Below, in pieces: positions 11,593 through 44,427 of a stretch of DNA of 45,623 nt. Positions within the stretch are counted from its first letter, which is position 1. Each line of letters opens with the position of its first letter. This DNA comes from a virus (taxonomy: Duplodnaviria > Heunggongvirae > Uroviricota > Caudoviricetes), in IMG/VR virus record IMGVR_UViG_2537561936_000015; one strand, given 5' to 3'. A model generated the notes under the pieces. That model was not told where the DNA came from and did no database searches. It was given only the letters and a program-made list of their open reading frames with translations. Both the position numbers and the translations under genes were made by a program.

Positions 11593-11847
11593 AAATAATT
11601 TGTTTTTAAACGACTAAAATATGGAGGCTCGTATATTTATATGGGCCTCGTTTTATGCTTTTTGTTAATGTCTTTAGTTTTTATTCATTCTTTTGTGCTT
11701 TCAAGATTATGGTGTAAGAAAATTGCAATACGATTATTGTTGTATATTCAAGATAATGTGACCTTAATTGTCTTTTTAAATAAAAATTAAACAAAAATCA
11801 TATCTCACCACTAAGGTTTATAAAAGCATACTTTAGCAGGTGTCACC

Positions 11848-13374: not shown

Positions 13375-13485
13375 GTAATAATCACTTTTTCAACCGTGCT
13401 ATAGTAAGAAAGTTAGGTAAGTACAATAAAATTATCTATCCTGAACGAAGCGTCCTGAGCTATGGTTTTACTATAGGGACTGCCA

Positions 13486-13809: not shown

Positions 13810-13827
13810 AGGCGCTAGTTAGTAAGG

Positions 13828-13853
13828 CTTCCGTCATTCTGCGATGACGGAAG
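13828..13853. repeat. Perfect 10-bp-stem palindrome CTTCCGTCAT-tctgcg-ATGACGGAAG
   Basis: Directly after ORF107 stop; no U-run, so terminator or protein-binding site. Confidence 0.4.
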
Positions 13854-13983
13854 TGCGGGCTGCGTACGGGAGAGCAATTGCATGAATAATATAAATATTC
13901 CGCTCACTCCATATAGCGATTTCTGATACAAACTTATCTATTGTGGTAAAATTATAGAAACAAACTTATAGCGTACTAACCAT

Positions 13984-14766: not shown

Positions 14767-14808
14767 ATCCACTAAATTGATTTTCAACAATCAACTTGCC
14801 ATAATTAA

Positions 14809-14840
14809 GTCACCGGAGTTTGAACTCCTCCGGTGACTTC
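14809..14840 (+). terminator. Hairpin GTCACCGGAG-loop-CTCCGGTGAC after the 260-aa ORF (putative terminator)
   Basis: Perfect 10-bp stem, 9-nt loop, followed by TTCTGCGC. Confidence 0.4.
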
Positions 14841-14860
14841 TGCGCTAAACGGGGACGTTT

Positions 14861-14962
14861 ATGCGCACATACAATCCAACCTCTCTTCTCCATTCACAGA
14901 TGCAGAAATGCACCTGCGATATTTTGCATCCAGCGTTTGATCTCTGCGGAGGTGAAGCGTGA
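14861..14962 (+). CDS. ylcH: Small protein YlcH-like (33 aa), translationally coupled to ybcN
   Basis: [33 protein letters not shown]; stop overlaps ybcN GTG start (GTGA). Confidence 0.5.
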
Positions 14963-15414
14963 ACCTCCCACAAGATGGTATCAAATTGCATCGCGGTAAC
15001 TTCACCGCTATCGGTCGGCAGATCCAGCCTTATCTGGAGGACGGCAAATGCTTTCGCATGGTGCTTAAACCGTGGCGCGAGAGACGCAGTCTTTCCCAGA
15101 ATGCACTCAGCCACATGTGGTACAGCGAAATCAGTGAATACCTCATCAGCAAGGGTAAAACGTTCGCCACTCCAGCTTGGGTAAAAGATGCTCTCAAACA
15201 CACATATCTCGGTTATGAAACCAAAGACCTGGTTGATGTCGTAACCGGTGATATCACCACTATCCAGTCGTTACGCCATACCTCCGATCTTGATACCGGA
15301 GAGATGTATGTCTTCCTGTGTAAGGTTGAAGCCTGGGCGATGAATATTGGCTGCCACCTGACTATTCCGCAGAGCTGCGAGTTCCAGCAGCTCCGCGACA
15401 AACAGGAGGCGTAA
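14959..15414 (+). CDS. ybcN: NinB-family protein (YbcN)
   Basis: 151-aa [57 protein letters not shown].. ; GTG start. Confidence 0.8.
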
Positions 15415-15584
15415 TGGCTACACCGCTTATTCGTGTCATGAACGGACACATCTACAGAGTACCAAATCGTCGTAAGCGTAAACCGGAGCTGAAGCCTTCC
15501 GAAATACCAACACTGCTCGGATATACCGCCAGCCTGGTTGATAAAAAATGGTTGCGACTGGCAGCAAGGAGGAATCATGGCTGA
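15414..15584 (+). CDS. ninE: NinE-like protein (56 aa)
   Basis: Hand-translated [56 protein letters not shown]; overlaps ybcN stop (TAATG). Confidence 0.6.
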   Translation: MATPLIRVMNGHIYRVPNRRKRKPELKPSEIPTLLGYTASLVDKKWLRLAARRNHG

Positions 15585-15867
15585 TTTGAGAAAAGCAGCG
15601 CGTAGTCGGGAATGCCAGGTAAGAATCCCTGGCGTATGTAATGGCAACCCTGAAACGTCTGTACTGGCACATATCCGGCTGACTGGATTGTGCGGCACCG
15701 GTACCAAACCGCCAGACCTGATTGCCCCCATTGCATGTTCTGCCTGCCACGACGAAATCGACCGCCGCACACATTTTGTCGATGCTGCATATGCAAAAGA
15801 ATGCGCGCTGGAAGGTATGGCGAGAACACAGGTTATCTGGCTGAAAGAGGGGGTTATTAAGGCGTGA
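15577..15867 (+). CDS. ybcO: YbcO-like protein (DUF1364, Cys-rich putative nuclease)
   Basis: 96-aa [64 protein letters not shown].. Confidence 0.75.
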
Positions 15868-16226
15868 ATACCTACAGCATCACATTACCCTGGCCTCCGA
15901 GCAATAATCGCTATTACCGCCATAATCGCGGGCGCACGCACGTCAGCGCAGAGGGGCAGGCATACCGCGATAACGTCGCCCGAATCATTAAAAACGCAAT
16001 GCTGGATATCGGCCTGGCTATGCCTGTGAAAATCCGCATTGAGTGCCACATGCCGGATCGCCGTCGCCGTGACCTGGATAATCTGCAAAAAGCCGCTTTT
16101 GACGCACTCACTAAAGCAGGTTTCTGGCTGGATGATGCTCAGGTCGTTGATTACCGCGTTGTGAAGATGCCGGTTGTCAAAGGTGGAAAGCTGGAACTGA
16201 CCATCACTGAACTGGGAGATGAATGA
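15864..16226 (+). CDS. rusA: Holliday junction resolvase RusA
   Basis: 120-aa [48 protein letters not shown].. recognised as RusA; GTG start overlapping ybcO stop. Confidence 0.9.
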
Positions 16227-16363
16227 TGTTTGAGTTTTATATGGCAGAACTTCTTCGCCACCGCTGGATGCGCCTGCGCTTATATCGTTTCCCCGGTTCT
16301 GTTTTGACCGATTACCGAATACTGAAGAATTACGCCAAAACACTGACAGGAGCAGGAGTATGA
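16223..16363 (+). CDS. ylcG: Small protein YlcG-like (46 aa)
   Basis: [46 protein letters not shown]; start overlaps rusA stop. Confidence 0.5.
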
Positions 16364-16448
16364 AGTCAGAGATAACAATCAACTAATACTGTTTTGTTGA
16401 TTTTTGCTTGTAATTGGCGTTCTGGTCTGATTTTTGTGGAGTAAGTTG

Positions 16449-16832
16449 ATGCGTGATATTCAGATGGTTCTTGAGCGTTGGGGAGCGTGGGCGGCTAATA
16501 ATCATGAAGATGTGACCTGGTCGTCCATTGCCGCCGGTTTTAAGGGATTAATTACTTCAAAAGTAAAATCTCGCCCGCAATGTTGTGACGATGACGCGAT
16601 GATTATTTGCGGGTGCATGGCCCGTCTGAAAAAGAACAACAGCGATTTGCACGATTTATTAGTAGATTATTATGTAGTCGGTATGACATTCATGTCACTG
16701 GCAGGTAAGCATTGCTGCTCTGATGGTTATATCGGGAAAAGGTTACAGAAGGCTGAGGGCATAATTGAAGGGATGTTAATGGCATTAGATATCCGGTTAG
16801 AGATGGATATCGTTGTTAATAACTCTAATTAA
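16449..16832 (+). CDS. quuD: Late-gene antiterminator Q (QuuD/phage-21 type)
   Basis: 127-aa [66 protein letters not shown].. ; position before lysis genes. Confidence 0.85.
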
Positions 16833-17020
16833 TATGCCAATTGTTTACTAAAAATTATTAAAAATGGGGCGTTGAGACGCCCCCAAAAATAAAGGGTAAT
16901 ATATAACAGAAGGTTTATATAGTTAGAAGCAAGGTTGTGCTCCTAAAGGAAGTGGCTTGAGGGAGCCACTTATATGTTGGGGAGGCAAAGCCTCCCGCAA
17001 CATATCTTTTAGTAATCAAA

Positions 17021-18103
17021 TTAGAACTGGTAAACCATACCTACAGCAACGATATCATCGGTAGCAACGCCAGATGCTTTCGTGAAATCGCTCTTATCAA
17101 TCAGGTTGATTTTGTAATCAACAAAAGTGGACATATTTTTGTTGAAGTAATAGGTTGCACCTACATCAATATATTCAACCAGGTCCTGATCACCCCACGC
17201 ACCCAAGTCTTTTCCTTTAGATTGCAGGTAAGCAACGGACGGACGCAGACCGAAGTCGAACTGATATTGTGCAACTACTTCGAAGTTTTGTGCTTTGTTG
17301 GCAATATGGTTATTACCAAAAACAGTCATGTTCTGGGTTTCAGAATAGGTGGTAGCCAGATAGATGTTGTTCGCATCATATTTCAGACCAGCTGCCCATA
17401 CTTCAGCATTTTGACCAGATGCATTCAGGCTGTTGTTACCGTAGATAACCTGATTATTAGTGCGGTCAGATTTAGCATAGGTTGCACCTACACCGAATCC
17501 TTCATACTCATAAGTAGTGGAGAAACCGAAACCATCACCATTAGCTTCAGTTACGTCAGTGCGGTCATTTTTACCCTGATACTGAGCAGCAAAGTTCAGA
17601 CCATCAACCAGACCAAAGAAGTCATTGTTACGATAAGTTGCAACACCTGTGGTGCGACCAGTCATGAATACATCTGTTTGGGTCCAGGTATCGCCACCGA
17701 ATTCTGGCAGAACGTCGGTCCATGCACCAATATCGTATGCTACACCGTAGTTACGGCCATAATCGATGGAGCCGTAGTCACCGAATTTCAGGCCAGCGAA
17801 GGCAAGACGGGTTTTGTCTTTGGAGGAACCTTGAGATTCAGCGCGGTTGCCTTTGAATTCATATTCCCACTGACCGAAACCAGTCAGTTGATCGTTGATT
17901 TGGGTTTCACCTTTGAAGCCAAGACGGGCATAAGTAGTATCACCATCATCTGCATCATTAGAGGAGAAGTAGTGCTTAGCATTAACTTTCCCGTACAGAT
18001 CCAGCTTGTTACTGTCTTTATTATAAATTTCAGCTGCCTGAGCAGACATCGCCATCAGTACTGATGCAGCTACAGCAGAAATTGCCACTGTTAATTTTTT
18101 CAT
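17021..18103 (-). CDS. nmpC: Outer membrane porin (NmpC/OmpD, OmpC family), lysogenic-conversion gene, apparently intact
   Basis: 360-aa ORF with signal peptide [24 protein letters not shown]-terminal ..VAVGMVYQF typical of general porins; opposite strand between Q and lysis genes as in DLP12. Confidence 0.9.
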
Positions 18104-25694: not shown

Positions 25695-26994
25695 TCTCCC
25701 GCATATTGCCAGCATGGCTTTTAATGAGCCGCTGATGCTTGACCCCGCCTATGCGCGGGTTTTCTTTTGTGCGCTTGCAGGCCAGCTTGGGATCAGTCGC
25801 CTGACGGATGCAGTATCCGGCGACAGCCTGACTGCCGGAGAGGCACCCGCGGCGCTGGCGTTATCCGGTGATGATGACGGACCACGACAGGCCCGCAGTT
25901 ATCAGGTCATGAACGGCATCGCCGTGCTGCCGGTGTCCGGTACGCTGGTCAGCCGGACGCGGGCGCTGCAGCCGTATTCGGGAATGACCGGTTACAACGG
26001 CATTATCGCCCGTCTGCAACAGGCTGCCAGCGATCCGATGGTGGACGGCATTCTGCTCGATATGGACACACCGGGCGGGATGGTGGCGGGAGCATTTGAC
26101 TGTGCTGACATCATCGCCCGTGTGCGTGACATAAAGCCGGTATGGGCGCTGGCCAACGACATGAACTGCAGTGCAGGTCAGCTGCTTGCCAGCGCCGCCT
26201 CCCGGCGTCTGGTCACGCAGACCGCCCGGACAGGCTCCATCGGCGTCATGATGGCTCACAGTAATTACGGCGCTGCGCTGGAGAAACAGGGCGTGGAAAT
26301 CACGCTGATTTACAGCGGCAGCCATAAGGTGGATGGCAACCCCTACAGCCATCTACCGGGTGATGTCCGGGAGACACTGCAGTCCCGGATGGATGCAACC
26401 CGCCGGATGTTTGCGCAGAAGGTGTCGGCATATACCGGCCTGTCCGTGCAGGCTGTGCTGGATACCGAGGCTGCAGTGTACAGCGGTCAGGAGGCCATTG
26501 ATGCCGGACTGGCTGATGAACTTGTCAACAGCACCGATGCGATCACCGTTATGCGTGATGCACTGGATGCACGTAAATCCCGTTTCTCAGGAGGGCGAAT
26601 GACCAAAGAGACTCAATCAACAACTGTTTCAGCCACTGCTTCGCAGGCTGACGTTACTGACGTGGTGCAAGCGACGGAGGGCGAAAACGCCAGCGCGGCG
26701 CAGCCGGACGTGAACGCGCAGATCACCGCTGCGGTTGCGGCAGAAAACAGCCGCATTATGGGGATCCTCAACTGTGAGGAGGCTCACGGACGCGAAGAAC
26801 AGGCACGTGTGCTGGCCGAAACCCCCGGTATGACCGTGGAAACGGCCCGCCGCATTCTGGCAGCTGCACCACAGAGTGCACAGGCGCGCAGTGACACTGC
26901 GCTGGATCGTCTGATGCAGGGGGCACCGGCACCACTGGCTGCAGGTAACCCGGCATCTGATGCCGTTAACGATTTGCTGAACACACCAGTGTAA
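25675..26994 (+). CDS. C: Head protease/scaffold-fusion protein C (GTG start)
   Basis: 439-aa from VTAELRNLPHIASMAFNEPLML..; overlaps B 3' end; ClpP/SppA-like fold region. Confidence 0.9.
26389..26994 (+). CDS. nu3: Scaffolding protein Nu3 (in-frame internal start within C)
   Basis: In-frame ATG at 26389 (MDATRRMFAQKVS..) sharing stop with C as in lambda. Confidence 0.65.
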   Translation: MDATRRMFAQKVSAYTGLSVQAVLDTEAAVYSGQEAIDAGLADELVNSTDAITVMRDALDARKSRFSGGRMTKETQSTTVSATASQADVTDVVQATEGENASAAQPDVNAQITAAVAAENSRIMGILNCEEAHGREEQARVLAETPGMTVETARRILAAAPQSAQARSDTALDRLMQGAPAPLAAGNPASDAVNDLLNTPV

Positions 26995-27003
26995 GGGATG
27001 TTT

Positions 27004-27336
27004 ATGACGAGCAAAGAACCCTTTACCCATTACCAGCCGCTGGGCAACAGTGACCCGGCACATACGGCAACCGCGCCCGGCGGATTGAGTGCGAAAGCGC
27101 CTGCAATGACCCCGCTGATGCCGGATACCTCCACCCGTAAGCTGGTTGCGTGGGATGGCACCACCGACGGTACTGCCGTTGGCATTCTGGCGGTTGATGC
27201 TGACCAGACCAGCACCACGCTGACGTTCTACAAGTCCGGCACGTTCCGTTATGAGGATGTGCTCTGGCCGGAGGCTGCCAGCGACGAGACGAAAAAACGG
27301 ACCGCGTTTGCCGGAACGGCAATCAGCATCGTTTAA
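27004..27336 (+). CDS. D: Capsid decoration protein D
   Basis: 110-aa [64 protein letters not shown].. Confidence 0.95.
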
Positions 27337-27391
27337 CCTTACCCTTCATCACTAAAGGCCGCCTGTGCGGCTTTTTTTACGGGATTTTTTT

Positions 27392-28417
27392 ATGTCGATG
27401 TACACAACCGCCCAGCTGCTGGCGGCAAATGAGCAGTAATTTAAGTTTGATCCGCTGTTTCTGCGTCTCTTTTTCCGTGAGAGCTATCCCTTCACCACGG
27501 AGAAAGTCTATCTCTCACAAATTCCGGGACTGGTAAACATGGCGCTGTACGTTTCGCCGATTGTTTCCGGTGAGGTTATCCGTTCCCGTGGCGGCTCCAC
27601 CTCTGAATTTACGCCGGGATATGTCAAACCCAAGCATGAGGTGAATCCGCAGATGACCCTGCGTCGCCTGCCGGATGAAGATCCGCAGAATCTGGCGGAC
27701 CCGGCTTACCGCCGCCGTCGCATCATCATGCAGAACATGCGAGACGAAGAGCTGGCCATTGCTCAGGTCGAAGAGATGCAGGCAGTTTCTGCTGTGCTTA
27801 AGGGCAAATACACCATGACCGGTGAAGCCTTCGATCCGGTTGAGGTGGATATGGGCCGCAGTGCGGCGAACAACATCACACAGTCCGGTGGTACGGAGTG
27901 GAGCAAGCGTGACAAGTCCACGTATGACCCGACCGACGATATCGAAGCCTATGCGCTGAACGCCAGCGGCGTGGTGAATATCATCGTGTTTGATCCGAAA
28001 GGCTGGGCGCTGTTCCGTTCCTTCAAAGCCGTCAAGGAGAAGCTGGATACCCGTCGCGGCTCTCATTCCGAGCTGGAGACAGCGGTAAAAGACCTGGGCG
28101 AAGCGGTGTCCTATAAGGGGATGTATGGCGATACGGCGATCGTCGTGTATTCCGGACAGTACGTGGAAAACGACGTCAAAAAGAACTTCCTGCCGGACAA
28201 CACGATGGTGCTGGGGAACACTCAGGCACGCGGTCTGCGCACCTATGGCTGCATTCAGGATGCGGACGCACAGCGCGAAGGTATTAACGCCTCTGCCCGC
28301 TACCCGAAAAACTGGGTGACCACCGGCGATCCGGCGCGTGAGTTCACCATGATTCAGTCAGCCCCGCTGATGCTGCTGGCTGATCCTGATGCGTTCGTGT
28401 CCGTACAACTGGCGTAA
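27392..28417 (+). pseudogene. E: Major capsid protein E with in-frame TAA at codon 16 (27437-27439); next in-frame ATG at 27539
   Basis: ATG at 27392 encodes MSMYTTAQLLAANEQ then TAA, then the same frame continues FKFDPLFLRLFFRESYPFTTEKVYLSQIPGLVNMALYVSP.. to 28417. Confidence 0.8.
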
Positions 28418-28458
28418 TCATGGCCCTTCGGGGCCATTTTCTCTCTGTGGAGGAGTCC

Positions 28459-28854
28459 ATGACGAAAGATGAACTGATTGCCCGTCTTCAGGTGCTGGGT
28501 GAGCAACTGAACCGTGATGTCAGCCTGACGGGGACGAAAGAAGAACTGGTGCTCCGTGTGGCAGAGCTGGAAGAGGAGCTTGATGACACGGATGACGCTG
28601 CCGGTCAGGACACATCTGTCAGCCCGGAAAATGCGCTGACCGGACATGAAAATGAGGTGGTATCAGCGCAGCCGGATACCGTGATTGATACGGCTGCTCT
28701 GGTCACGGTCGTGGCACTGGTGACGCTGCATACTGATGCACTTCACGCCACGCGGGATGAGCCTGTGGCATTTGTGCTGCCGGGAACGGCGTTTCGTGTC
28801 TCTGCCGGTGTGGCAGCCGAAATGACAGAACATGGCCTGGCCAGAATGCAATAA
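28459..28854 (+). CDS. FI: DNA packaging/head assembly protein FI
   Basis: 131-aa MTKDELIARLQVLGEQLNRDVSLTGTKEELVLRVAELEEELDDTDDAAG..; GGAGG RBS. Confidence 0.9.
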   Translation: MTKDELIARLQVLGEQLNRDVSLTGTKEELVLRVAELEEELDDTDDAAGQDTSVSPENALTGHENEVVSAQPDTVIDTAALVTVVALVTLHTDALHATRDEPVAFVLPGTAFRVSAGVAAEMTEHGLARMQ

Positions 28855-28865
28855 CGGGAGGCGCT

Positions 28866-29219
28866 GTGGCTGATTCCGATAACCTGTTCGATGCTGCCAT
28901 TGCCCGCGCCGATGAAACGATACGCGGGTACATGGGAACGTCAGCCACCATGACATCCGGTGAGCTGTCCGGTGCTGTGATACGTGGTGTTTTTGATGAC
29001 CCTGAAAATATCAGCTATGCCGGACAGGGGGTGCGCGTTGAAGGCTCCAGCCCGTCCCTGTTTGTCCGGACTGATGATGTGCGGCAGCTGCGGCGTGGAG
29101 ACACACTGACCATCGGCGAGGAAAACTTCTGGGTGGACCGGATTTCGCCGGATGATGGCGGAAGCTGTCATCTCTGGCTTGGGCGGGGCGTACCGCCTGC
29201 CGTTAACCGTCGCCGCTGA
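28866..29219 (+). CDS. FII: Head-tail connector protein FII
   Basis: 117-aa ORF recognised as lambda gpFII. Confidence 0.95.
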   Translation: MADSDNLFDAAIARADETIRGYMGTSATMTSGELSGAVIRGVFDDPENISYAGQGVRVEGSSPSLFVRTDDVRQLRRGDTLTIGEENFWVDRISPDDGGSCHLWLGRGVPPAVNRRR

Positions 29220-29230
29220 AGGGGGGATGT

Positions 29231-29809
29231 ATGGCCATAAAAGGTCTTGAGCAGGCCGTTGAAAACCTCAGTCGTATCAGCAAAACGGCGGTGCCCGGTG
29301 CGTCAGCAATGGCCATTAACCGCGTTGCGTCATCCGCGATATCGCAGTCTGCGTCACAGGTTGCCCGTGAGACAAGGGTACGCCGGAAACTGGTAAAGGA
29401 AAGGGCCAGGCTGAAAAGGGCCACGGTTAAAAATCCGCAGGCCAGAATCAGGGTTAACCGGGGGGATTTGCCCGTAATCAAGCTGGGTAACGCGCGGGTT
29501 GTCCTGTCCCGACGCAGGCGTCGTAAAAAGGGGCAGCGTTCATCCCTGAAAGGTGGCGGCAGCGTGCTTGTGGTGGGAAACCGTCGTATTCCCGGCGCGT
29601 TTATTCAGCAACTGAAAAATGGCCGCTGGCATGTCATGCAGCGTGTGGCCGGGAAAAACCGTTACCCCATTGATGTGGTGAAAATCCCGATGGCGGTGCC
29701 GCTGACCACGGCGTTTAAACAGAATATTGAGCGGATACGGCGTGAGCGTCTTCCGAAAGAGCTGGGCTATGCGCTGCAGCATCAACTGAGGATGGTAATA
29801 AAGCGATGA
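29231..29809 (+). CDS. Z: Tail completion protein Z
   Basis: 192-aa ORF recognised as lambda gpZ. Confidence 0.95.
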   Translation: MAIKGLEQAVENLSRISKTAVPGASAMAINRVASSAISQSASQVARETRVRRKLVKERARLKRATVKNPQARIRVNRGDLPVIKLGNARVVLSRRRRRKKGQRSSLKGGGSVLVVGNRRIPGAFIQQLKNGRWHVMQRVAGKNRYPIDVVKIPMAVPLTTAFKQNIERIRRERLPKELGYALQHQLRMVIKR

Positions 29810-30201
29810 AACATACTGAACTCCGTGCAGCCGTACTGGATGCACTGGAGAAGCATGACACCGGGGCGACGTTTTTTGATGGTCGCCCCGCTGTTTTTGA
29901 TGAGGCGGATTTTCCGGCAGTTGCCGTTTATCTCACCGGCGCTGAATACACGGGCGAAGAGCTGGACAGCGATACCTGGCAGGCGGAGCTGCATATCGAA
30001 GTTTTCCTGCCTGCTCAGGTACCGGATTCAGAGCTGGATTCGTGGATGGAGTCCCGGATTTATCCGGTGATGAGCGATATCCCGGCACTGTCAGATTTGC
30101 TCACCAGTATGGTGGCCAGTGGCTATGACTACCGGCGCGACGATGATGCGGGCCTGTGGAGTTCTGCCGATCTGACTTATGTCATTACCTATGAAATGTG
30201 A
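29806..30201 (+). CDS. U: Tail terminator protein U
   Basis: 131-aa ORF recognised as lambda gpU. Confidence 0.95.
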
Positions 30202-30208
30202 GGACGAT

Positions 30209-30949
30209 ATGCCTGTACCAAATCCAGCAATACCGGTGAAAGGTGCCGGGACCACCCTGTGGGTTTATAACGGGAGCGGCGACCCTTATGCGAACCCGCT
30301 TTCAGACGTTGACTGGTCGCGTCTGGCTAAAGTTAAAGACCTGACGCCCGGCGAACTGACCGCTGAGTCCTATGACGACAGTTATCTCGATGATGAAGAT
30401 GCGGACTGGACCGCGACCGGGCAGGGGCAGAAATCCGCCGGAGATACCAGCTTCACGCTGGCGTGGATGCCCGGAGAGCAGGGGCAGCAGGCGCTGCTGG
30501 CGTGGTTTAATGAAGGTGATACCCGTGCCTATAAAATCCGCTTCCCGAACGGCACGGTCGATGTGTTCCGTGGCTGGGTCAGCAGTATCGGTAAGGCGGT
30601 GACGGCGAAGGAAGTGATCACCCGTACGGTGAAGGTCACCAATGTGGGCCGTCCGTCAATGGCAGAAGATCGCAGTACGGTGACGGCGGCAACCGGTATG
30701 ACTGTGACGCCTGCCAGCTCCTCGGTGGTGAAAGGGCAGAGCACCACGCTGACCGTGGCATTCCAGCCGGAGGGCGCAACTGACAAGAGCTTCCGTGCGG
30801 TGTCAGCGGATAAAACAAAAGCCACCGTGTCGGTCAGTGGTATGACCATCACCGTGAAAGGCGTTGCTGCAGGTAAGGTCAACATTCCGGTTGTATCCGG
30901 TAATGGTGAACTTGCTGCGGTTGCAGAAATCACTGTCACCGACAGTTAA
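30209..30949 (+). CDS. V: Major tail tube protein V
   Basis: 246-aa [67 protein letters not shown].. Confidence 0.95.
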
Positions 30950-30964
30950 TCCGGAGAGTCAGCG

Positions 30965-31387
30965 ATGTTCCTGAAAACCGAATCATTTGAACATAACGGC
31001 GTGACCGTCACGCTTTCTGAACTGTCAGCCCTGCAGCGTATTGAGCATCTCGCCCTGATGAAACGGCAGGCAGAACAGGCGGAGTCAGACAGCAACCGGA
31101 AGTTTACTGTGGAAGACGCCATCAGAACCGGCGCGTTTCTGGTGGCGATGTCCCTGTGGCATAACCATCCGCAGAAGACGCAGATGCCGTCCATGAATGA
31201 AGCCGTTAAACAGATTGAGCAGGAAGTGCTTACCACCTGGCCTACAGAGGCAATTTCTCATGCTGAAAACGTGGTGTACCGGCTGTCTGGTATGTATGAG
31301 TTTGTGGTGAATAATGCCCCTGAACAGACAGAGGACGCCGGGCCCGCAGAGCCTGTTTCTGCGGGAAAGTGTTCGACGGTGAGCTGA
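30965..31387 (+). CDS. G: Tail assembly chaperone G
   Basis: 140-aa ORF recognised as lambda gpG. Confidence 0.95.
   Translation: MFLKTESFEHNGVTVTLSELSALQRIEHLALMKRQAEQAESDSNRKFTVEDAIRTGAFLVAMSLWHNHPQKTQMPSMNEAVKQIEQEVLTTWPTEAISHAENVVYRLSGMYEFVVNNAPEQTEDAGPAEPVSAGKCSTVS
31362..31368 (+). promoter_or_regulatory. Slippery heptamer GGGAAAG for programmed -1 frameshift producing G-T fusion
   Basis: G GGA AAG at the 3' end of G, with T ORF open in the -1 frame. Confidence 0.7.
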
Positions 31388-31803
31388 GTTTTGCCCTGAA
31401 ACTGGCGCGTGAGATGGGGCGACCCGACTGGCGTGCCATGCTTGCCGGGATGTCATCCACGGAGTATGCCGACTGGCACCGCTTTTACAGTACCCATTAT
31501 TTTCATGATGTTCTGCTGGATATGCACTTTTCCGGGCTGACGTACACCGTGCTCAGCCTGTTTTTCAGCGATCCGGATATGCATCCGCTGGATTTCAGTC
31601 TGCTGAACCGGCGTGAGGCTGACGAAGAGCCTGAAGATGATGTGCTGATGCAGAAAGCGGCAGGGCTTGCCGGAGGTGTCCGCTTTGGCCCGGACGGGAA
31701 TGAAGTTATCCCTACTTCCCCGGATGTGGCGGACATGACGGAGGATGACGTAATGCTGATGACAGTATCAGAAGGGATCGCAGGAGGAGTCCGGTATGGC
31801 TGA
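31369..31803 (+). CDS. T: Tail assembly protein T (expressed as G-T fusion by -1 frameshift)
   Basis: 144-aa open frame overlapping G 3' end; recognised as lambda gpT region. Confidence 0.85.
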   Translation: MFDGELSFALKLAREMGRPDWRAMLAGMSSTEYADWHRFYSTHYFHDVLLDMHFSGLTYTVLSLFFSDPDMHPLDFSLLNRREADEEPEDDVLMQKAAGLAGGVRFGPDGNEVIPTSPDVADMTEDDVMLMTVSEGIAGGVRYG

Positions 31804-34375
31804 ACCGGTAGGCGATCTGGTCGTTGATTTGAGTCTGGATGCGGCCAGATTTGACGAGCAGATGACCAGAGTCAGGCGTCATTTTTCCGGTACGGAAAGT
31901 GATGCGAAAAAAACAGCGGCAGTCGTTGAACAGTCGCTGAGCCGACAGGCGCTGGCTGCACAGAAAGCGGGGATTTCCGTCGGGCAGTATAAAGCCGCCA
32001 TGCGTATGCTGCCTGCACAGTTCACCGACGTGGCCACGCAGCTTGCAGGCGGGCAAAGTCCGTGGCTGATCCTGCTGCAACAGGGTGGTCAGGTTAAGGA
32101 CTCCTTCGGCGGGATGATCCCCATGTTCCGGGGGCTTGCCGGTGCGATCACCCTGCCGATGGTGGGGGCCACCTCGCTGGCGGTGGCGACCGGTGCGCTG
32201 GCGTATGCCTGGTATCAGGGCAACTCAACCCTGTCCGATTTCAACAAAACGCTGGTCCTTTCCGGCAATCAGGCGGGACTGACGGCAGATCGTATGCTGG
32301 TCCTGTCCAGAGCCGGGCAGGCGGCAGGGCTGACGTTTAACCAGACCAGCGAGTCACTGACGGCGCTGGTGAATGCCGGTGTGCGTGGTGGTGAGCAGTT
32401 TGAGGCGATCAGCCAGAGTGTGGCGCGTTTCTCCTCTGCATCCGGCGTGGAGGTGGACAAGGTCGCTGAAGCCTTCGGGAAGCTGACCACAGACCCGACG
32501 TCGGGACTGACAGCGATGGCACGTCAGTTCCATAACGTGACGGCGGAGCAGATTGCGTATGTTGCTCAGTTGCAGCGTTCCGGAGATGAAGCCGGGGCAT
32601 TGCAGGCGGCGAACGAGGCCGCAACGAAAGGGTTTGATGACCAGACCCGCCGCCTGAAAGAGAACATGGGCACGCTGGAGACCTGGGCAGACAGGACAGC
32701 ACGGGCATTCAAATCCATGTGGGATTCGGTGCTGGATATTGGTCGCCCGGACACTGCCCAGGGAATGCTGGAGAAAGCAGAAAAGGCTTTTGATGAGGCG
32801 GACAAAAAATGGCAGTGGTATCAGAGCCGGAGCCACCGGCGCGGTAAAACCTCAGCATTTCTTGCCAATCTCCGGGGAGCATGGGAGGACAGAGCGAATG
32901 CGCAACTTGGGCTTTCAGCCGCCACGTTGCAGGCCGATCTTGAAAAGGCCAGAGAGATGGCAGCAAAGGACTGGGCCGAGTCTGAGGCATCACGGCTGAA
33001 ATATACCGAAGAGGCGCAGAAGGCTTACGAACGGCTGCAGACGCCGCTGGAGAAATATACCGCCCGTCAGGAAGAACTGAACAAGGCACTGAAAGACGGG
33101 AAAATCCTGCAGGCGGATTACAACACGCTGATGGCGGCGGCGAAAAAGGATTATGAAGCGACGCTGAAAAAGCCGAAACAGTCCGGCGTGAAGGTGTCTG
33201 CGGGCGATCGTCAGGAAGACAGTGCTCATGCTGCCCTGCTGATGCTTCAGACAGAACTCCGGACGCTGGAGAAGCATGCCGGAGCGAATGAGAAAATCAG
33301 CCAGCAGCGCCGGGATTTGTGGAAGGCAGAAAGTCAGTTCGCGGTACTGGAGGAGGCGGCGCAACGTCGTCAGTTGTCTGCACAGGAGAAATCCCTGCTG
33401 GCGCATAAAGATGAGACGCTGGAGTACAAACGCCAGCTGGCTGCACTTGGCGACAAGGTTACGTATCAGGAGCGCCTGAACGCGCTGGCGCAGCAGGCGG
33501 ATAAATTCGCACAGCAGCAACGGGCAAAACGGGCCGCCATTGATGCGAAAAGCCGGGGGCTGACTGACCGGCAGGCAGAACGGGAAGCCACGGAACAGCG
33601 CCTGAAGGAACAGTATGGCGATAATCCGCTGGCGCTGAATAACGTCATGTCAGAGCAGAAAAAGACCTGGGCGGCTGAAGACCAGCTTCGCGGGAGCTGG
33701 ATGGCAGGCCTGAAGTCCGGCTGGAGTGAGTGGGAAGAGAGCGCCACGGACAGTATGTCGCAGGTTAAAAGTGCAGCCACGCAGACCTTTGATGGTATTG
33801 CACAGAATATGGCGGCGATGCTGACCGGCAGTGAGCAGAACTGGCGCAGCTTCACCCGTTCCGTGCTGTCCATGATGACAGAAATTCTGCTTAAGCAGGC
33901 AATGGTGGGGATTGTCGGGAGTATCGGCAGCGCCATTGGCGGTGCTGCCAGTGGTGGAGCATCCGCGTCAGGCGGTACAGCCATTCAGGCCGCTGCGGCG
34001 AAATTCCATTTTGCGACCGGGGGATTTACGGGAACCGGCGGCAAATATGAGCCAGCGGGGATTGTTCACCGTGGTGAATTTGTCTTCACGAAGGAGGCAA
34101 CCAGCCGGATTGGTGTCGGCAACCTGTACCGCCTGATGCGGGGCTATGCGGAAGGTGGTTATGTGGGCGGTGCCGGAAGTCCGGCGCAGATGCGGCGGGC
34201 TGAAGGCATTAATTTTAATCAGAACAATCACGTGGTGATTCAGAACGACGGTACGAATGGTCTGCCAGGTCCACAGATGATGAAGGCAGTGTATGACATG
34301 GCCCGCAAGGGTGCCCGTGATGAAATTCAGACACAGATGCGTGATGGTGGCCTGTTCTCCGGAGGTGGACGATGA
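31796..34375 (+). CDS. H: Tail tape-measure protein H
   Basis: 859-aa ORF MAEPVGDLVVDLSLDAARFDEQM.. recognised as lambda gpH with a divergent central segment. Confidence 0.95.
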   Translation: MAEPVGDLVVDLSLDAARFDEQMTRVRRHFSGTESDAKKTAAVVEQSLSRQALAAQKAGISVGQYKAAMRMLPAQFTDVATQLAGGQSPWLILLQQGGQVKDSFGGMIPMFRGLAGAITLPMVGATSLAVATGALAYAWYQGNSTLSDFNKTLVLSGNQAGLTADRMLVLSRAGQAAGLTFNQTSESLTALVNAGVRGGEQFEAISQSVARFSSASGVEVDKVAEAFGKLTTDPTSGLTAMARQFHNVTAEQIAYVAQLQRSGDEAGALQAANEAATKGFDDQTRRLKENMGTLETWADRTARAFKSMWDSVLDIGRPDTAQGMLEKAEKAFDEADKKWQWYQSRSHRRGKTSAFLANLRGAWEDRANAQLGLSAATLQADLEKAREMAAKDWAESEASRLKYTEEAQKAYERLQTPLEKYTARQEELNKALKDGKILQADYNTLMAAAKKDYEATLKKPKQSGVKVSAGDRQEDSAHAALLMLQTELRTLEKHAGANEKISQQRRDLWKAESQFAVLEEAAQRRQLSAQEKSLLAHKDETLEYKRQLAALGDKVTYQERLNALAQQADKFAQQQRAKRAAIDAKSRGLTDRQAEREATEQRLKEQYGDNPLALNNVMSEQKKTWAAEDQLRGSWMAGLKSGWSEWEESATDSMSQVKSAATQTFDGIAQNMAAMLTGSEQNWRSFTRSVLSMMTEILLKQAMVGIVGSIGSAIGGAASGGASASGGTAIQAAAAKFHFATGGFTGTGGKYEPAGIVHRGEFVFTKEATSRIGVGNLYRLMRGYAEGGYVGGAGSPAQMRRAEGINFNQNNHVVIQNDGTNGLPGPQMMKAVYDMARKGARDEIQTQMRDGGLFSGGGR

Positions 34376-34701
34376 AAACCTTCCGCTGGAAAGTGAAACC
34401 CGGTATGGATGTGGCTTCGGCCCCTTCTGTAAGAAAGGTGCGCTTTGGTGATGGCTATTCCCAGCGAGCGCCTGCCGGGCTGAATGCCAACCTGAAAACG
34501 TACAGCGTGACGCTTTCTGTCCCCCGTGAGGAGGCCACGGTACTGGAGTCGTTTCTGGCTGAGCACGGGGGCTGGAAATCCTTTCTGTGGACGCCGCCTT
34601 ATGAGTGGCGGCAGATAAAGGTGACCTGCGCAAAATGGTCGTCGCGGGTCAGTATGTTGCGTGTTGAGTTCAGCGCAGAGTTTGAACAGGTGGTGAACTG
34701 A
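34372..34701 (+). CDS. M: Tail tip protein M
   Basis: 109-aa ORF recognised as lambda gpM. Confidence 0.95.
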   Translation: MKTFRWKVKPGMDVASAPSVRKVRFGDGYSQRAPAGLNANLKTYSVTLSVPREEATVLESFLAEHGGWKSFLWTPPYEWRQIKVTCAKWSSRVSMLRVEFSAEFEQVVN

Positions 34702-35399
34702 TGCAGGATATCCGACAGGAAACACTGAATGAATGCACCCGTGCGGAGCAGTCGGCCAGCGTGGTGCTCTGGGAAATCGACCTGACAGAGGTCGGTGGAG
34801 AACGTTATTTTTTCTGTAATGAGCAGAACGAAAAAGGTGAGCCGGTCACCTGGCAGGGGCGACAGTATCAGCCGTATCCCATTCAGGGGAGTGGTTTTGA
34901 ACTGAATGGCAAAGGCACCAGTACGCGCCCCACGCTGACGGTTTCTAACCTGTACGGTATGGTCACTGGGATGGCGGAAGATATGCAGAGTCTGGTCGGC
35001 GGAACGGTGGTCCGGCGTAAGGTTTACGCCCGTTTTCTGGATGCGGTGAACTTCGTCAACGGAAACAGTTACGCCGATCCGGAGCAGGAGGTGATCAGCC
35101 GCTGGCGCATTGAGCAGTGCAGCGAACTGAGCGCGGTGAGTGCCTCCTTTGTACTGTCCACGCCGACGGAAACGGATGGCGCTGTTTTTCCGGGACGTAT
35201 CATGCTGGCCAACACCTGCACCTGGACCTATCGCGGCGATGAGTGCGGTTATCACGGTCCGGCTGTCGCGGATGAATATGACCAGCCAACGTCCGATATC
35301 ACGAAGGATAAATGCAGCAAATGCCTGAGCGGTTGTAAGTTCCGCAATAACGTCGGCAACTTTGGCGGCTTCCTTTCCATTAACAAACTTTCGCAGTAA
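34701..35399 (+). CDS. L: Tail tip protein L
   Basis: 232-aa ORF recognised as lambda gpL (Cys cluster near C-terminus). Confidence 0.95.
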   Translation: MQDIRQETLNECTRAEQSASVVLWEIDLTEVGGERYFFCNEQNEKGEPVTWQGRQYQPYPIQGSGFELNGKGTSTRPTLTVSNLYGMVTGMAEDMQSLVGGTVVRRKVYARFLDAVNFVNGNSYADPEQEVISRWRIEQCSELSAVSASFVLSTPTETDGAVFPGRIMLANTCTWTYRGDECGYHGPAVADEYDQPTSDITKDKCSKCLSGCKFRNNVGNFGGFLSINKLSQ

Positions 35400-35404
35400 A
35401 TCCC

Positions 35405-36148
35405 ATGACACAGACAGAATCAGCGATTCTGGCGCACGCCCGGCGATGTGCGCCAGCGGAGTCGTGCGGCTTCGTGGTAAGCACGCCGGAGGGGGAAAGA
35501 TATTTTCCCTGCGTGAATATTTCCGGTGAGCCGGAGGCGTATTTCCGTATGTCGCCGGAAGACTGGCTGCAGGCAGAAATGCAGGGTGAGATTGTGGCGC
35601 TGGTCCACAGCCACCCCGGTGGTCTGCCCTGGCTGAGTGAGGCCGACCGGCGGCTGCAGGTGCAGAGTGATTTGCCGTGGTGGCTGGTCTGCCGGGGGAC
35701 GATTCATAAGTTCCGCTGTGTGCCGCATCTCACCGGGCGGCGCTTTGAGCACGGTGTGACGGACTGTTACACACTGTTCCGGGATGCTTATCATCTTGCA
35801 GGTATCGATTTGCCGGATTTTTACCGACATGATGACTGGTGGAAATCAGGTCAGAATCTCTATCTGGATAATCTGGAGGCCACAGGGCTGTATCAGGTGC
35901 CGTTGTCATCAGCACAACCGGGCGATGTGCTGCTGTGCTGCTTTGGTTCATCGGTGCCGAATCATGCCGCCATTTACTGTGGTGACGGCGAGCTGCTGCA
36001 CCATATTCCTGAACAACTGAGCAAACGAGAGAGGTATACCGACAAATGGCAGCGACGCACACACTCCCTCTGGCGTCACCAGGCATGGCACGTATCTGCC
36101 TTTACGGGGATTTACAACGATTTGGCCGCCGCATCGATCTGCGTGTGA
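35405..36148 (+). CDS. K: Tail tip assembly protein K (JAB/MPN + NlpC/P60 domains)
   Basis: 247-aa ORF with JAMM motif (ALVHSHPGG..SEAD) and NlpC/P60 Cys/His (DCYTLF, NHAAIY). Confidence 0.85.
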   Translation: MTQTESAILAHARRCAPAESCGFVVSTPEGERYFPCVNISGEPEAYFRMSPEDWLQAEMQGEIVALVHSHPGGLPWLSEADRRLQVQSDLPWWLVCRGTIHKFRCVPHLTGRRFEHGVTDCYTLFRDAYHLAGIDLPDFYRHDDWWKSGQNLYLDNLEATGLYQVPLSSAQPGDVLLCCFGSSVPNHAAIYCGDGELLHHIPEQLSKRERYTDKWQRRTHSLWRHQAWHVSAFTGIYNDLAAASICV

Positions 36149-36685
36149 AAACGGGGGCCGAAGCCATCCGGGCGCTGGCCATGCAGATCCCGGCGTTTCG
36201 TCAGAAGCTGAGCGACGGCTGGTATCAGGTACGCATTGCCGGGCGTGATACAGGTGAAACGGAATTATCAGCCCGTTTCATGAACTCTGGCTGATGGTGC
36301 TGTGATCCATATCGTGCCGCGTCTGGCAGGAGCCAAAAGTGGCGGTGTGTTTCAGGCTGTGCTGGGGGCGGCTGTTATGGCGGTTGCTATATGGATGCCG
36401 GGGGTAGGAATTATGGCGAGTAATCTGCTGTTTTCTCTCGGTGCCAGTATGACGCTTGGCGGTGTTGCACAGATGCTGGCCCCTAAACCCAAAACCCCCC
36501 GCACACAGACAACGGATAACGGCAAACAGAACACCTATTTTTCTTCACTGGATAACATGGTTGCCCAGGGCAATGTTCTGCCTGTTCTGTACGGTGAAAT
36601 GCGCGTGGGGTCACGCGTGGTTTCTCAGGAGATCAGCACGGCAGACGAAGGGGATGGTGGTCAGGTTGTGGTGATTGGTCGCTGA
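36046..36685 (+). pseudogene. I: Tail tip assembly protein I, split into two reading frames (36046-36294 and 36302-36685)
   Basis: N-terminal part (MAATHTLPLASPGMARICLYGDLQRFGRRIDLRVKTG..) ends at TGA 36292-36294; C-terminal part (..AVIHIVPRLAGAKSGG..QVVVIGR) is in the +1 frame; span is 640 nt, not a multiple of 3. Confidence 0.6.
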
Positions 36686-36745
36686 TGCAAAATGTTTTAT
36701 GTGAAACCGCCTGCGGGCGGTTTTGTCATTTATGGAGCGTGAGGA

Positions 36746-39700
36746 ATGGGTAAAGGCAGCAGTAAGGGGCATACCCCGCGCGAAGCGAAGGACAACCTGA
36801 AGTCCACGCAGCTGCTGAGTGTGATCGATGCCATCAGCGAAGGGCCGGTTGAAGGTCCGGTGGATGGATTAAAAAGCGTGCTGCTGAACAGTACGCCGGT
36901 GCTGGACACTGAGGGGAATACCAACATCTCCGGTGTCACGGTGGTGTTCCGTGCCGGTGAGCAGGAGCAGACACCGCCGGAGGGGTTTGAATCCTCCGGC
37001 TCCGAGACGGTGCTGGGTACGGAAGTGAAATATGACACGCCGATCACCCGCACCATTACGTCTGCAAACATCGACCGTCTGCGCTTTACCTTCGGTGTGC
37101 AGGCACTGGTGGAAACCACCTCAAAGGGGGACCGGAATCCGTCGGAAGTCCGCCTGCTGGTTCAGATACAGCGTAACGGTGGCTGGGTGACGGAAAAAGA
37201 CATCACCATTAAGGGCAAAACCACCTCGCAGTATCTGGCCTCGGTGGTGGTGGATAACCTGCCGCCGCGCCCGTTTAATATCCGGATGCGCAGGATGACG
37301 CCGGACAGCACCACAGACCAGCTGCAGAACAAAACGCTCTGGTCGTCATACACCGAAATCATCGATGTGAAACAGTGCTACCCGAACACGGCACTGGTCG
37401 GCGTGCAGGTGGACTCGGAACAGTTCGGCAGCCAGCAGGTGAGCCGTAATTATCATCTTCGCGGGCGTATTCTGCAGGTGCCGTCGAACTATAACCCGCA
37501 GACGCGGCAATACAGCGGTATCTGGGACGGAACGTTTAAGCCAGCATACAGCAACAACATGGCCTGGTGTATGTGGGATATGCTGACCCATCCGCGCTAC
37601 GGCATGGGGAAGCGTCTCGGTGCAGCGGATGTAGATAAATGGGCGCTGTATGTCATCGGCCAGAATTGCGACCAGTCGGTGCCGGATGGCTTTGGTGGCA
37701 CGGAGCCGCGCATCACCTGTAATGCCTGGCTGACCACACAGCGCAAGGCGTGGGATGTTCTCAGTGATTTCTGCTCGGCGATGCGCTGTATGCCGGTATG
37801 GAACGGGCAGACGCTGACGTTCGTGCAGGACCGACCGTCGGATAAGGTGTGGACCTATAACCGCAGTAATGTGGTGATGCCGGATGATGGCGCGCCGTTC
37901 CGCTACAGCTTCAGTGCCCTGAAGGACCGTCATAATGCCGTTGAGGTGAACTGGATTGACCCGGATAACGGCTGGGAGACGGCGACAGAGCTTGTTGAAG
38001 ATACGCAGGCCATTGCCCGTTACGGTCGTAACGTCACGAAGATGGATGCCTTTGGCTGTACCAGCCGGGGGCAGGCGCACCGCGCCGGGCTGTGGCTGAT
38101 TAAAACGGAACTACTGGAAACGCAGACCGTGGACTTCAGCGTGGGTGCGGAAGGGCTTCTCCATGTGCCGGGCGATGTCATTGAAATCTGCGATGATGAC
38201 TATGCGGGGATCAGCACCGGCGGGCGCGTGCTGGCGGTGAACAGCCAGACCCGGACGCTGACGCTCGACCGTGAAATCACGCTGCCATCCTCCGGTACCA
38301 CGCTGATAAGCCTGGTTGACGGAAGTGGCAATCCGGTCAGCGTGGAGGTCCAGTCCGTCACCGACGGCGTGAAGGTAAAAGTGAGCCGTGTTCCTGACGG
38401 CGTTGCCGGATACAGCGTATGGGGGCTGAAGCTGCCGACGCTGCGCCAGCGCCTGTTCCGCTGCGTGAGTATCCGTGAGAACGACGACGGCACGTATGCC
38501 ATCACCGCCGTGCAGCATGTACCGGAAAAAGAAGCCATCGTGGATAACGGGGCGCACTTTGACGGCGACCAGAGCGGCACGGTGAATGGTGTCACGCCGC
38601 CAGCAGTGCAGCACCTGACTGCCGAAGTCACCGCAGACAGCGGGGAGTATCAGGTACTGGCCCGCTGGGACACGCCGAAGGTGGTGAAGGGCGTGAGTTT
38701 CCTGCTCCGTCTGACCGTGACAGCGGATGACGGCAGTGAGCGGCTGGTCAGCACAGCCAGGACGACGGAAACCACATACCGCTTCACGCAACTGGCGCTG
38801 GGAAATTACAGGCTGACAGTCCGGGCGGTAAATGCGTGGGGACAGCAGGGCGATCCGGCATCGGTATCGTTCCGGATTGCCGCACCGGCAGCACCGTCGC
38901 GGATTGAGCTGACGCCGGGCTATTTTCAGATAACCGCCACGCCGCATCTTGCGGTTTATGATCCGACGGTACAGTTTGAGTTCTGGTTCTCGGAAAAGCG
39001 GATTGCGGATATCAGGCAGGTTGAAACCACAGCACGCTATCTTGGCACGGCGCTGTACTGGATAGCCGCCAGTATCAATATCAGGCCGGGCCATAATTAT
39101 TATTTTTACGTTCGCAGTGTGAACACCGTTGGCAAATCGGCATTCGTGGAGGCTGTTGGTCAGCCGAGTGATGACGCATCCGGCTATCTGGATTTTTTCA
39201 AAGGCGAGATAGGGAAAACCCATCTGGCTCAGGAGCTGTGGACGCAGATTGATAACGGTCAGCTTGCGCCTGACCTGGCTGAAATCAGGACATCCATTAC
39301 GGATGTCAGCAATGAAATCACACAGACCGTCAATAAGAAACTGGAAGACCAGAGTGCAGCGATCCAGCAGATACAGAAGGTTCAGGTTGATACAAATAAT
39401 AATCTGAACAGCATGTGGGCTGTGAAGCTGCAGCAGATGCAGGACGGACGCCTTTATATCGCGGGTATCGGTGCCGGTATTGAGAACACCTCCGACGGCA
39501 TGCAGAGTCAGGTGCTGCTGGCGGCAGACAGGATTGCGATGATTAATCCTGCGAATGGCAACACAAAGCCGATGTTTGTTGGTCAGGGCGATCAGATATT
39601 CATGAACGAAGTGTTCCTGAAATATCTGACGGCTCCCACCATTACCAGCGGCGGTAATCCTCCGGCATTTTCCCTGACACCGGACGGAAAGCTGACCGCT

Positions 39701-40225
39701 AAAAATGCGGATATCAGTGGCAGTGTGAATGCGAACGCCGGGACGCTCAACAACGTCACGATTAACGAGAACTGCCGGGTTCTGGGAAAACTGTCCGCGA
39801 ACCAGATTGAAGGCGATCTCGTTAAAACAGTGGGCAAAGCTTTCCCCCGGGACTCCCGTGCACCGGAGCGGTGGCCATCAGGGACCATTACCGTCAGGGT
39901 TTATGACGATCAGCCGTTTGACCGGCAAATTGTTATTCCGGCGGTGGCATTCAGTGGCGCTAAGCATGAGAGAGAGCATACTGATATTTACTCCTCATGC
40001 CGTCTGATAGTGCGGAAAAACGGTGCTGAAATTTATAACCGTACCGCGCTGGATAATACGCTGATTTACAGTGGCGTTATTGATATGCCTGCCGGTCACG
40101 GTCACATGACGCTGGAGTTTTCGGTATCAGCATGGCTGGTGAATAACTGGTATCCCACAGCAAGTATCAGCGATTTGCTGGTTGTGGTGATGAAGAAAGC
40201 CACCGCAGGCATCAGTATCAGCTGA
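36746..40225 (+). CDS. J: Tail tip / host-specificity protein J
   Basis: 1159-aa [48 protein letters not shown].. recognised as lambda gpJ family. Confidence 0.95.
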
Positions 40226-40243
40226 ATTTTATAACCCATATAC

Positions 40244-40269
40244 GGGCGCCAGAAATGGCGCCTTTTTTA
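40244..40269 (+). terminator. Rho-independent terminator after J (GGCGCC-agaaat-GGCGCC + T6)
   Basis: Perfect 6-bp stem with T-run. Confidence 0.55.
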
Positions 40270-40292
40270 TTGCAGAAAAGCGAGAGGTAATT

Positions 40293-40892
40293 ATGCGTAA
40301 ATTATGTGCTGTTATTCTGTCCGCAGCCATCTGTCTGTCCGTATCCGGTGCGCCTGCATGGGCGTCTGAACATCAGTCCACACTGAACGCGGGGTATCTT
40401 CATGCCCGTACGAACGCTCCCGGCAGCGATAATCTGAACGGGATTAACGTGAAATACCGTTATGAGTTTACGGACACGCTGGGGCTGGTGACGTCATTCA
40501 GTTATGCCAATGCCAAAGATGAGCAAAAAACGCATTACAGCGATACCCGCTGGCATGAAGATTCCGTGCGTAACCGCTGGTTCAGCGTGATGGCGGGGCC
40601 GTCTGTACGCGTGAATGAATGGTTCAGCGCGTATGCGATGGCGGGTGTGGCTTACAGCCGTGTGTCGACTTTCTCCGGGGATTATCTCCGCGTAACTGAC
40701 AACAAGGGGAAAACGCACGACGTGCTGACCGGAAGTGATGACGGTCGCCACAGCAATACCTCTCTGGCGTGGGGAGCTGGCGTGCAGTTTAACCCGACCG
40801 AATCCGTGGCCGTTGATGTCGCTTATGAAGGCTCCGGCAGCGGTGACTGGCGTACCAACAGTTTCATCGTGGGTGTCGGCTATAAATTCTGA
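40293..40892 (+). CDS. lom: Outer membrane protein Lom (Ail/Lom family)
   Basis: 199-aa ORF with signal peptide, C-terminal ..GVGYKF beta-barrel signature; position after J as in lambda. Confidence 0.9.
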   Translation: MRKLCAVILSAAICLSVSGAPAWASEHQSTLNAGYLHARTNAPGSDNLNGINVKYRYEFTDTLGLVTSFSYANAKDEQKTHYSDTRWHEDSVRNRWFSVMAGPSVRVNEWFSAYAMAGVAYSRVSTFSGDYLRVTDNKGKTHDVLTGSDDGRHSNTSLAWGAGVQFNPTESVAVDVAYEGSGSGDWRTNSFIVGVGYKF

Positions 40893-40918
40893 TTAGCCAG
40901 GTAACACAGTGTTATGAC

Positions 40919-40946
40919 AGCCCGCCGGTTCAGGCGGGCTTTTTTG
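40919..40946 (+). terminator. Rho-independent terminator after lom (AGCCCGCC-ggttca-GGCGGGCT + T5)
   Basis: Perfect 8-bp stem with T-run. Confidence 0.55.
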
Positions 40947-40957
40947 TGGGGGGGAAT

Positions 40958-43870: not shown

Positions 43871-43871
43871 G

Positions 43872-44399: not shown

Positions 44400-44405
44400 A
44401 AATTA

Positions 44406-44422: not shown

Positions 44423-44427
44423 TCGTC

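Follow-up and report, generated by a model that had tools for sequence, protein, structure and literature searches.

Organization of the prophage

The stretch of DNA that we analyzed (45,623 nucleotides, referred to here as the window) begins in the host gene ybhC and continues into a lambda-like prophage of an E. coli chromosome, which occupies the lambda attachment site, with ybhC on one side and ybhB/bioA on the other. The features that are referred to below are as follows.

1–1284, minus strand: host gene ybhC
1331–45623, plus strand: lambda-like prophage; attL core GCTTTTTTATACTAA at 1331, attR beyond the window
27392–28417, plus strand: major capsid gene E, 341 codons, broken at codon 16; matches lambda gpE with K16 restored, and Pfam PF03864
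27437–27439, plus strand: premature ochre codon TAA (AAA>TAA, Lys16>stop); the next base is T, which gives the tetranucleotide UAAU
27392–27439, plus strand: residual 15-codon frame, MSMYTTAQLLAANEQ and then the stop
27455–28417, plus strand: counterpart of the 320-aa PGAP coding sequence, with CTG at codon 22 (WP_249438622.1 in the sister genome)
27539–28417, plus strand: residual 292-codon ORF from Met50, the next in-frame ATG
36145–36685, plus strand: tail-tip gene I, a possible second lesion; split frame, with a patch at about 36277–36297

The early genes were found in the order int, xis, exo, bet, gam, cI, cro, O, P, ren. An accessory block of the DLP12 type (11260–18103), set within an otherwise lambda-type genome, contains emrE (an SMR efflux gene), ybcK (serine recombinase family), ybcN, ninE, ybcO, rusA, ylcG, Q (quuD-type), an ompC/nmpC-like porin gene on the opposite strand, S, R, and Rz. 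The names essD, rrrD, quuD, nohD, ybcN, ybcO, and rusA, which appear in the annotation, are of DLP12 origin. The late genes are Nu1-A-W-B-C-D-E-FI-FII-Z-U-V-G-T-H-M-L-K-I-J, then lom, stf, and tfa. When the window was compared with the phage PhiR34_1, the counterparts of its genes were full-length, stop-free, and 88–100% identical, with the exceptions of E (one stop) and I (two frames); Rz in the window is a different allele from that of PhiR34_1. The genes for lysis and replication and the Red genes exo and bet are intact.

In the sister genome (GPEC60-12-649, described below), both att cores flank the prophage. Neither attR nor the pin invertase gene was found in the locus of the source assembly (L137), which ends too early; just past the end of the window, it contains only a 64-aa resolvase fragment (L137 19688–19882). 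Beyond stf/tfa, on the minus strand, there are a second tail-fibre-assembly ORF (44428–44961) and a fibre C-terminal fragment (44964–45623). The inverted arrangement of these fragments suggests an invertible host-range segment.

Gene E is interrupted at codon 16

From the ATG at 27392, the frame codes for MSMYTTAQLLAANEQ, and its codon 16 is TAA (27437–27439). After that codon, the frame continues as FKFDPLFLRLFFRESYPFTTEKVYLSQIPGLVNMALYV (FKFDPLFLRL...) and is free of stops up to the TAA at 28415–28417. The first in-frame ATG, GTG, or TTG past the premature stop is the ATG at 27539, i.e., codon 50, from which a 292-aa ORF runs. The positions given for the start, the two stops and the internal ATG in a first-pass annotation of this DNA were all confirmed in the sequence; its statement that a restart at 27539 would cost about 49 N-terminal residues also agrees with a start at codon 50. 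An uninterrupted E frame of about 341 codons, including the N-arm, is absent from the window. One A>T transversion at 27437 (AAA>TAA), in the context cagAaat, accounts for the lesion; codon 16 is AAA, coding for Lys, in lambda and in all other relatives examined.

The first-pass annotation had taken the gene for a lambda-type major capsid gene E and had proposed an alignment with lambda E. The assignment was borne out by the D-E-FI synteny, by that alignment, and by the Pfam match. With Lys16 restored, the protein is identical to lambda gpE (PDB 7VI9) at 334 of 341 residues, residues 1–156 being identical throughout. The restored protein scored 239.8 bits against PF03864 (cut-off 22.9), covering profile positions 1–328 of 329. 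The 292-aa remnant scored 202.1 bits over positions 47–328, so that positions 1–46 of the 329 are lost. Distant homologues of gpE with solved structures align from residue 3 or 13. In the head gene order Nu1-A-W-B-C/Nu3-D-E-FI-FII, every neighbour of E is present, in place, and full-length. Judged by its sequence, E in the window is functionally a pseudogene; it can be recognized as E but would not be a functional member of the family. The 15-residue peptide is the sole product to be expected from the native start.

Two GC-rich hairpins flank E, each preceding a T-rich run, at positions conserved with lambda. The one between D and E (GCCGC-ctgt-GCGGC followed by T7, 27358–27378) was seen by eye and missed by the terminator scan; the other (ATGGCCC-ttcg-GGGCCAT, 28420–28437), directly 3' of the E stop, was flagged by the scan. 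The promoter and terminator scan around E gave nothing that bears on the lesion.

Occurrence of the TAA allele

Of the 5,426 complete E. coli genomes that we scanned, 3,047 contained the 81 nt surrounding codon 16. In its TAA form, this 81-mer was present without mismatch in one of these 3,047 genomes, GPEC60-12-649; the remainder were one mismatch away. GPEC60-12-649 is a chicken isolate from Georgia, USA, with a chromosome-level assembly and one copy of E. An exact-protein index also placed the 292-aa product, as an exact match, on further contigs. Between the E start and the internal ATG, all 150 nt, including the TAA, were identical to the window in the Logan assemblies of the runs SRR13995188, SRR29657870, and SRR446928. 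The carriers of the allele are listed by locus.

L001, L124, L125, L126: carriers of the TAA allele besides the source

Outside the recombinant K/I/J tract, the carriers differed from the window by no more than 10 SNPs in 28 kb; in the host flank and early region, there were three mismatches in 8.6 kb. A chance statistic has no bearing on a lone SNP; because the same allele recurs in independent assemblies (at least four other assemblies or runs, with the same haplotype), the TAA is genuine. The TAA haplotype has a single origin and is vertically inherited.

Among the records with the stretch around codon 16, the TAA allele was found in none of the 78 phage records and none of the 44 plasmid records. 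The first-pass annotation had allowed that related functional phages might share the stop and start E at 27539; such phages were looked for, with the above result. A 48-mer containing the TAA had no match in GTDB-representative genomes, IMG/VR, or JGI metagenome contigs, and the AAA version of the same 48-mer had more than 120 matches in IMG/VR. The intact protein, differing solely by Lys16, was present on at least 1,000 contigs; the 292-aa call was present on 17 contigs and the 320-aa call on four. Since the intact K16 protein is so widespread, the TAA allele is best read as a recent and rare loss-of-function allele, one mutational step away from a very common intact allele.

The tract containing K, I, J, lom, and stf (about 35000–42500) has a different history. 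Along it, the identity to the sister prophages with TAA falls from about 99.97% to 96.5% and then to 89.5%, and the allele type of gene I switches within the tract. We read this as an exchange of the tail-tip/fibre module with another lambdoid, at about the time when the TAA haplotype arose or after it.

Quality of the source assembly and the state of gene I

The locus L137 (assembly GCA_000357145.2, contig APYJ01000143.1) is 100% identical to positions 26302–45623 of the window, over 19,322 bases. At six positions (13618, 15727, 23830, 25743, 27019, and 28363), the window is unlike all sister prophages. All six differences are A:T>C:G, and five of them are GGT>GGG on one strand, the dominant motif of Illumina systematic error (PMC3295828). 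These private differences are probably base-call errors in GCA_000357145.2. Three of them change an amino acid (T51P in ybcO, E23D in C, and T8P in D). A mutator of the mutT type was also considered as their source and was set aside, five of the six falling in the Illumina motif.

The TAA itself had been regarded in the first-pass annotation as a possible sequencing error, the true codon being AAA. The six private differences of L137 and its unique, odd 21-bp patch in gene I lend such an error some plausibility. Against this, the TAA is not private, being shared with GPEC60-12-649 and the assemblies of three further SRA runs, and an A>T change in cagAaat falls outside the GGT>GGG class. We reject the error explanation, the probability of which we consider negligible.

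Gene I reads for 49 codons up to a TGA at 36292–36294, and the remaining 127 or more codons follow in the +1 frame to the normal end. Compared with the closest intact alleles (those of HB-Coli0 and phage PhiR49_1), the gene is 2 nt short, and the differences are confined to a patch of 21 bp that looks chimeric, as if a lambda-type and an HB-Coli0-type allele had been joined there. Only L137 was found to have this patch; the other carriers of TAA have an intact I. A first reading of the look-up with the 127-aa fragment, in which the frameshift seemed to be widespread, was rejected on this ground. The other loci with the 127-aa fragment had either an in-frame allele with a late start set by the gene caller, scaffold Ns, or a different stop (L138). 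gpI is a structural plug of the tail tip (PMC10721106), and the frameshift, if real, would block tail assembly as well. Because it occurs only in L137, whose assembly has probable Illumina errors, we hold the frameshift as unconfirmed, either a second lesion or an assembly artefact.

Predicted consequences for capsid formation

Nonsense mutants of lambda E are conditional lethals that form no head structures and still make tails. Late transcription, being antiterminated by Q, escapes nonsense polarity. It is because lambda E nonsense mutants make no heads, and because of the HK97-fold structure of the protein, that we infer a loss of capsid production here. The course of events may be outlined as follows. 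Translation from the native start would end after 15 residues at UAAU. Re-initiation at Met50 would yield, at best, a little gpE that lacks the N-arm. No proheads would form in the absence of gpE, and DNA packaging would fail. On induction, excision, replication, lysis, and the production of tail parts would persist, and infectious particles would be absent unless help is provided.

The N-arm matters to the structure of the shell. A strand of this arm, together with the E-loop of a neighbouring subunit and the N-terminus of gpD, makes up the sheet of four strands by which the lambda shell is stapled together (PMC5701804). This bears on an internal start, at Met50 or at the CTG of codon 22, as the source of a working capsid protein. 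PGAP calls a 320-aa "major capsid protein" in the sister genome, and the pairing with a Shine–Dalgarno (SD)-like sequence is stronger for the ATG at 27539 (−6.2 kcal/mol) than for the native start (−4.1 kcal/mol). Given this modest SD-like sequence, some of the truncated protein may be made from Met50. The CTG at codon 22, on the other hand, has no SD sequence (−0.9 kcal/mol). A start at Met50 removes 46 of the 329 conserved profile positions along with the strand that contributes to the gpD-stapled sheet; this region is conserved in the distant solved homologues, and lambda and all the 78 phage records keep the full N-terminus. The Met50 product would be expected to fail in assembly, and we find it extremely improbable that an internal start supplies a functional capsid protein.

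Enough gpE could also be obtained, in principle, if the stop were leaky or if the host carried an ochre suppressor, in which case the prophage would be a natural conditional-lethal phage of the "sus" type. The lesion is indeed a lone nonsense codon in an otherwise intact E, and a lysine-inserting ochre suppressor would give exactly the wild-type gpE. The sequence context does not favour this. No tRNA gene was found within the window. UAA is the least leaky stop codon and UAAU the strongest bacterial termination signal, the U at +4 lowering both read-through and suppression (PMC5289835). Moreover, a lambda head takes about 415 copies of gpE (PMC10721106), for which trace read-through would be insufficient, and the TAA allele is missing from all records submitted as phage genomes. 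That suppression or read-through provides sufficient gpE is, in our estimate, highly improbable. Programmed read-through or recoding was considered separately and rejected, the stop lying in the tightest context, UAAU, and occurring in one of the 3,047 genomes and none of the 78 phage records.

The prophage very probably cannot build heads on its own. The first-pass annotation had described it as probably defective unless suppressed, and the UAAU context, the lack of a tRNA gene in the window, the conserved N-terminus, and the absence of TAA from the 78 phage records support that description. We consider it highly likely that the window carries a genuine, inherited Lys16>ochre change in gene E, within a lambda-like prophage that is nearly intact in other respects, and that capsid production would be lost as a result.

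Lesions of E in related prophages

To place this lesion among its relatives, we used the IMG/VR loci L002–L121 that have the wild-type codon 16 and the whole E gene in the locus (106 contigs). E was disrupted in 19 of them (about 18%), by insertions, frameshifts, and another nonsense codon. Twelve of the 19 share one junction, with total divergence before codon 86, and this is probably one insertion in one lineage. A clean nonsense codon was found at codon 278 of E in L051.

Three further lesions lie near the 5' end of the gene. In L131 (SRR16952362), codon 8 is an amber codon (CAG>TAG); in L122 (SRR12643344), an IS66-family element is inserted in E, with an overlap of about 9 bp at window positions 27423–27431; and in L123 (GCA_045607565.1), there is a 2-bp insertion near codon 29. 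These three came to light because each leaves an identical 292-aa ORF. A 5' hot-spot for lesions in E was rejected for this reason, the clustering being an ascertainment effect, as the 292-aa product had served as the query.

It may be noted that L123 contains, at 1–6300, a satellite-like island beside a fragmentary lambda-like prophage. The island has a D5_N primase and AlpA, a 309-aa Phage_cap_E protein of its own, an HDPD-like decoration protein, and a Nu1-like small terminase. Its layout resembles that of a capsid-forming PICI. Fragmentation affects many of the genes nearby, and the assembly may be noisy.

Annotation of the truncated gene

In the RefSeq/PGAP annotation of GPEC60-12-649, E is entered as a "major capsid protein" of 320 aa (WP_249438622.1) with the CTG of codon 22 as its start (L001 20156–21118), and it is not marked as a pseudogene. 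Most likely, the CTG call serves as a device of the annotation and conceals a pseudogene. With a gene content that looks intact and a 320-aa call in RefSeq, completeness tools and predictions of inducibility or transduction would overrate such a prophage. The cargo at stake in predictions of transduction comprises emrE, the porin, and lom.

The value of the observation lies mainly in this practical matter of annotation. It also offers a clean natural case of the first step of decay, a single SNP with the rest intact. A small base rate is gained as well: in E. coli prophage contigs, about 18% of the lambda-type capsid genes sampled are disrupted. The stop in E raises no new biological question.

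Fate of the element

The TAA in E is a case of ordinary prophage decay at its first, single-SNP step, a kind of feature that is already known. Measured against lambda, PhiR34_1, and the 78 phage records, an essential structural gene stops prematurely here, and the prophage may be classed from its sequence as defective.

A prophage that is defective by itself might still be mobile, if a co-resident lambda-type E supplied capsids in trans or repaired the codon by recombination. E. coli genomes with up to five copies of E (at least 95% identity) do occur, and defective prophages of O157 Sakai are induced, packaged, and transferred through interactions between prophages (PMC2669165). The exchanged K/I/J/stf tract, by comparison with the sister prophages, indicates ongoing recombination with lambdoids, and the Red genes exo and bet are intact. 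On the other side, the sister GPEC60-12-649 has a single copy of E. Rescue of this kind is plausible in general; for this prophage we consider it unlikely, and it retains a small share of the probability.

Adaptive domestication would hold that the loss of the capsid was selected, so that virions are lost while the cargo (emrE, the porin, and lom), the immunity, and possibly the tails are kept. Its appeal lies in the persistence of the allele, which is found in several strains distinguished by a recombined tail tract, in the capsid-gene lesions of 19 of the 106 relatives, and in the independent 5' lesions of other strains. The frequency of lesions is predicted equally well by neutral decay, however, and the multiple 5' lesions reflect the use of the 292-aa query. 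Induction would still kill a cell in which lysis and replication are intact, and a capsid knockout would give that cell no protection. The allele is, moreover, rare (about 1 in 3,000 genomes). Domestication, which the data do not call for, is on balance distinctly unlikely.

A related and bolder idea is that of a stable "headless" element, one that supplies tails or late functions to others (e.g., capsid-forming satellites such as the PICI-like island in L123, which has E- and D-like genes of its own) or is rescued by recombination with co-resident lambdoids. Such an element would keep its immunity, Red recombination, lysis, and cargo (emrE, the porin, and lom), and possibly its tail production. 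We rate this idea as very unlikely to apply here. That the allele occurs in strains whose tail tract has been exchanged is compatible with it, and neutral hitch-hiking explains the occurrence equally well. Our preferred reading is still that of ordinary decay.

Comparison with known systems

Lambda gpE (J02459 6135–7160; PDB 7VI9 and 7SJ5; PF03864) has the same length as E of the window and, likewise, D upstream and FI downstream. The two differ at codon 16, which is AAA in lambda and TAA in the window, and by seven conservative substitutions in the C-terminal half.

PhiR34_1 (PV340559.1) is the same mosaic as the window, joining a lambda-type module for recombination and structure to the DLP12-type genes from emrE and ybcK through Q and the porin to lysis; compared one protein at a time, the two are 96–100% identical. 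It was deposited as a complete phage genome, with K-12 MG1655 as host, and has an intact 341-aa E and a 190-aa I. Its integrase differs from that of the window, and its ybcL, ybcM, bor, and pin were not found in the window. The cryptic prophage DLP12 of E. coli K-12 has the module emrE-ybcK-ybcN-ninE-ybcO-rusA-ylcG-quuD-porin-essD-rrrD in common with the window. DLP12 has lost nearly all of its structural genes, whereas the prophage in the window retains the full set of head and tail genes and stands one or two point lesions short of a working phage.

The laboratory amber "sus" mutants of lambda E (such as Eam4 in lysogens used for in vitro packaging) carry UAG and are kept and grown in supE or supF hosts. 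As in those mutants, E in the window contains a nonsense codon within a prophage that is complete in other respects and should be inducible, for which no proheads and the other late proteins would be expected. The laboratory mutations are induced and UAG, whereas the one in the window is a natural UAA (in UAAU) from wild isolates, of poultry and other origin, and the window itself contains no suppressor.

The pool of defective prophages in O157 Sakai (PMC2669165) also consists of lambdoids that look otherwise complete and have defects in morphogenesis, caused in Sakai by point mutations or insertions. For O157 Sakai, induction, packaging, and transfer were measured, whereas the lesion in the window is one SNP, known from the sequence alone.
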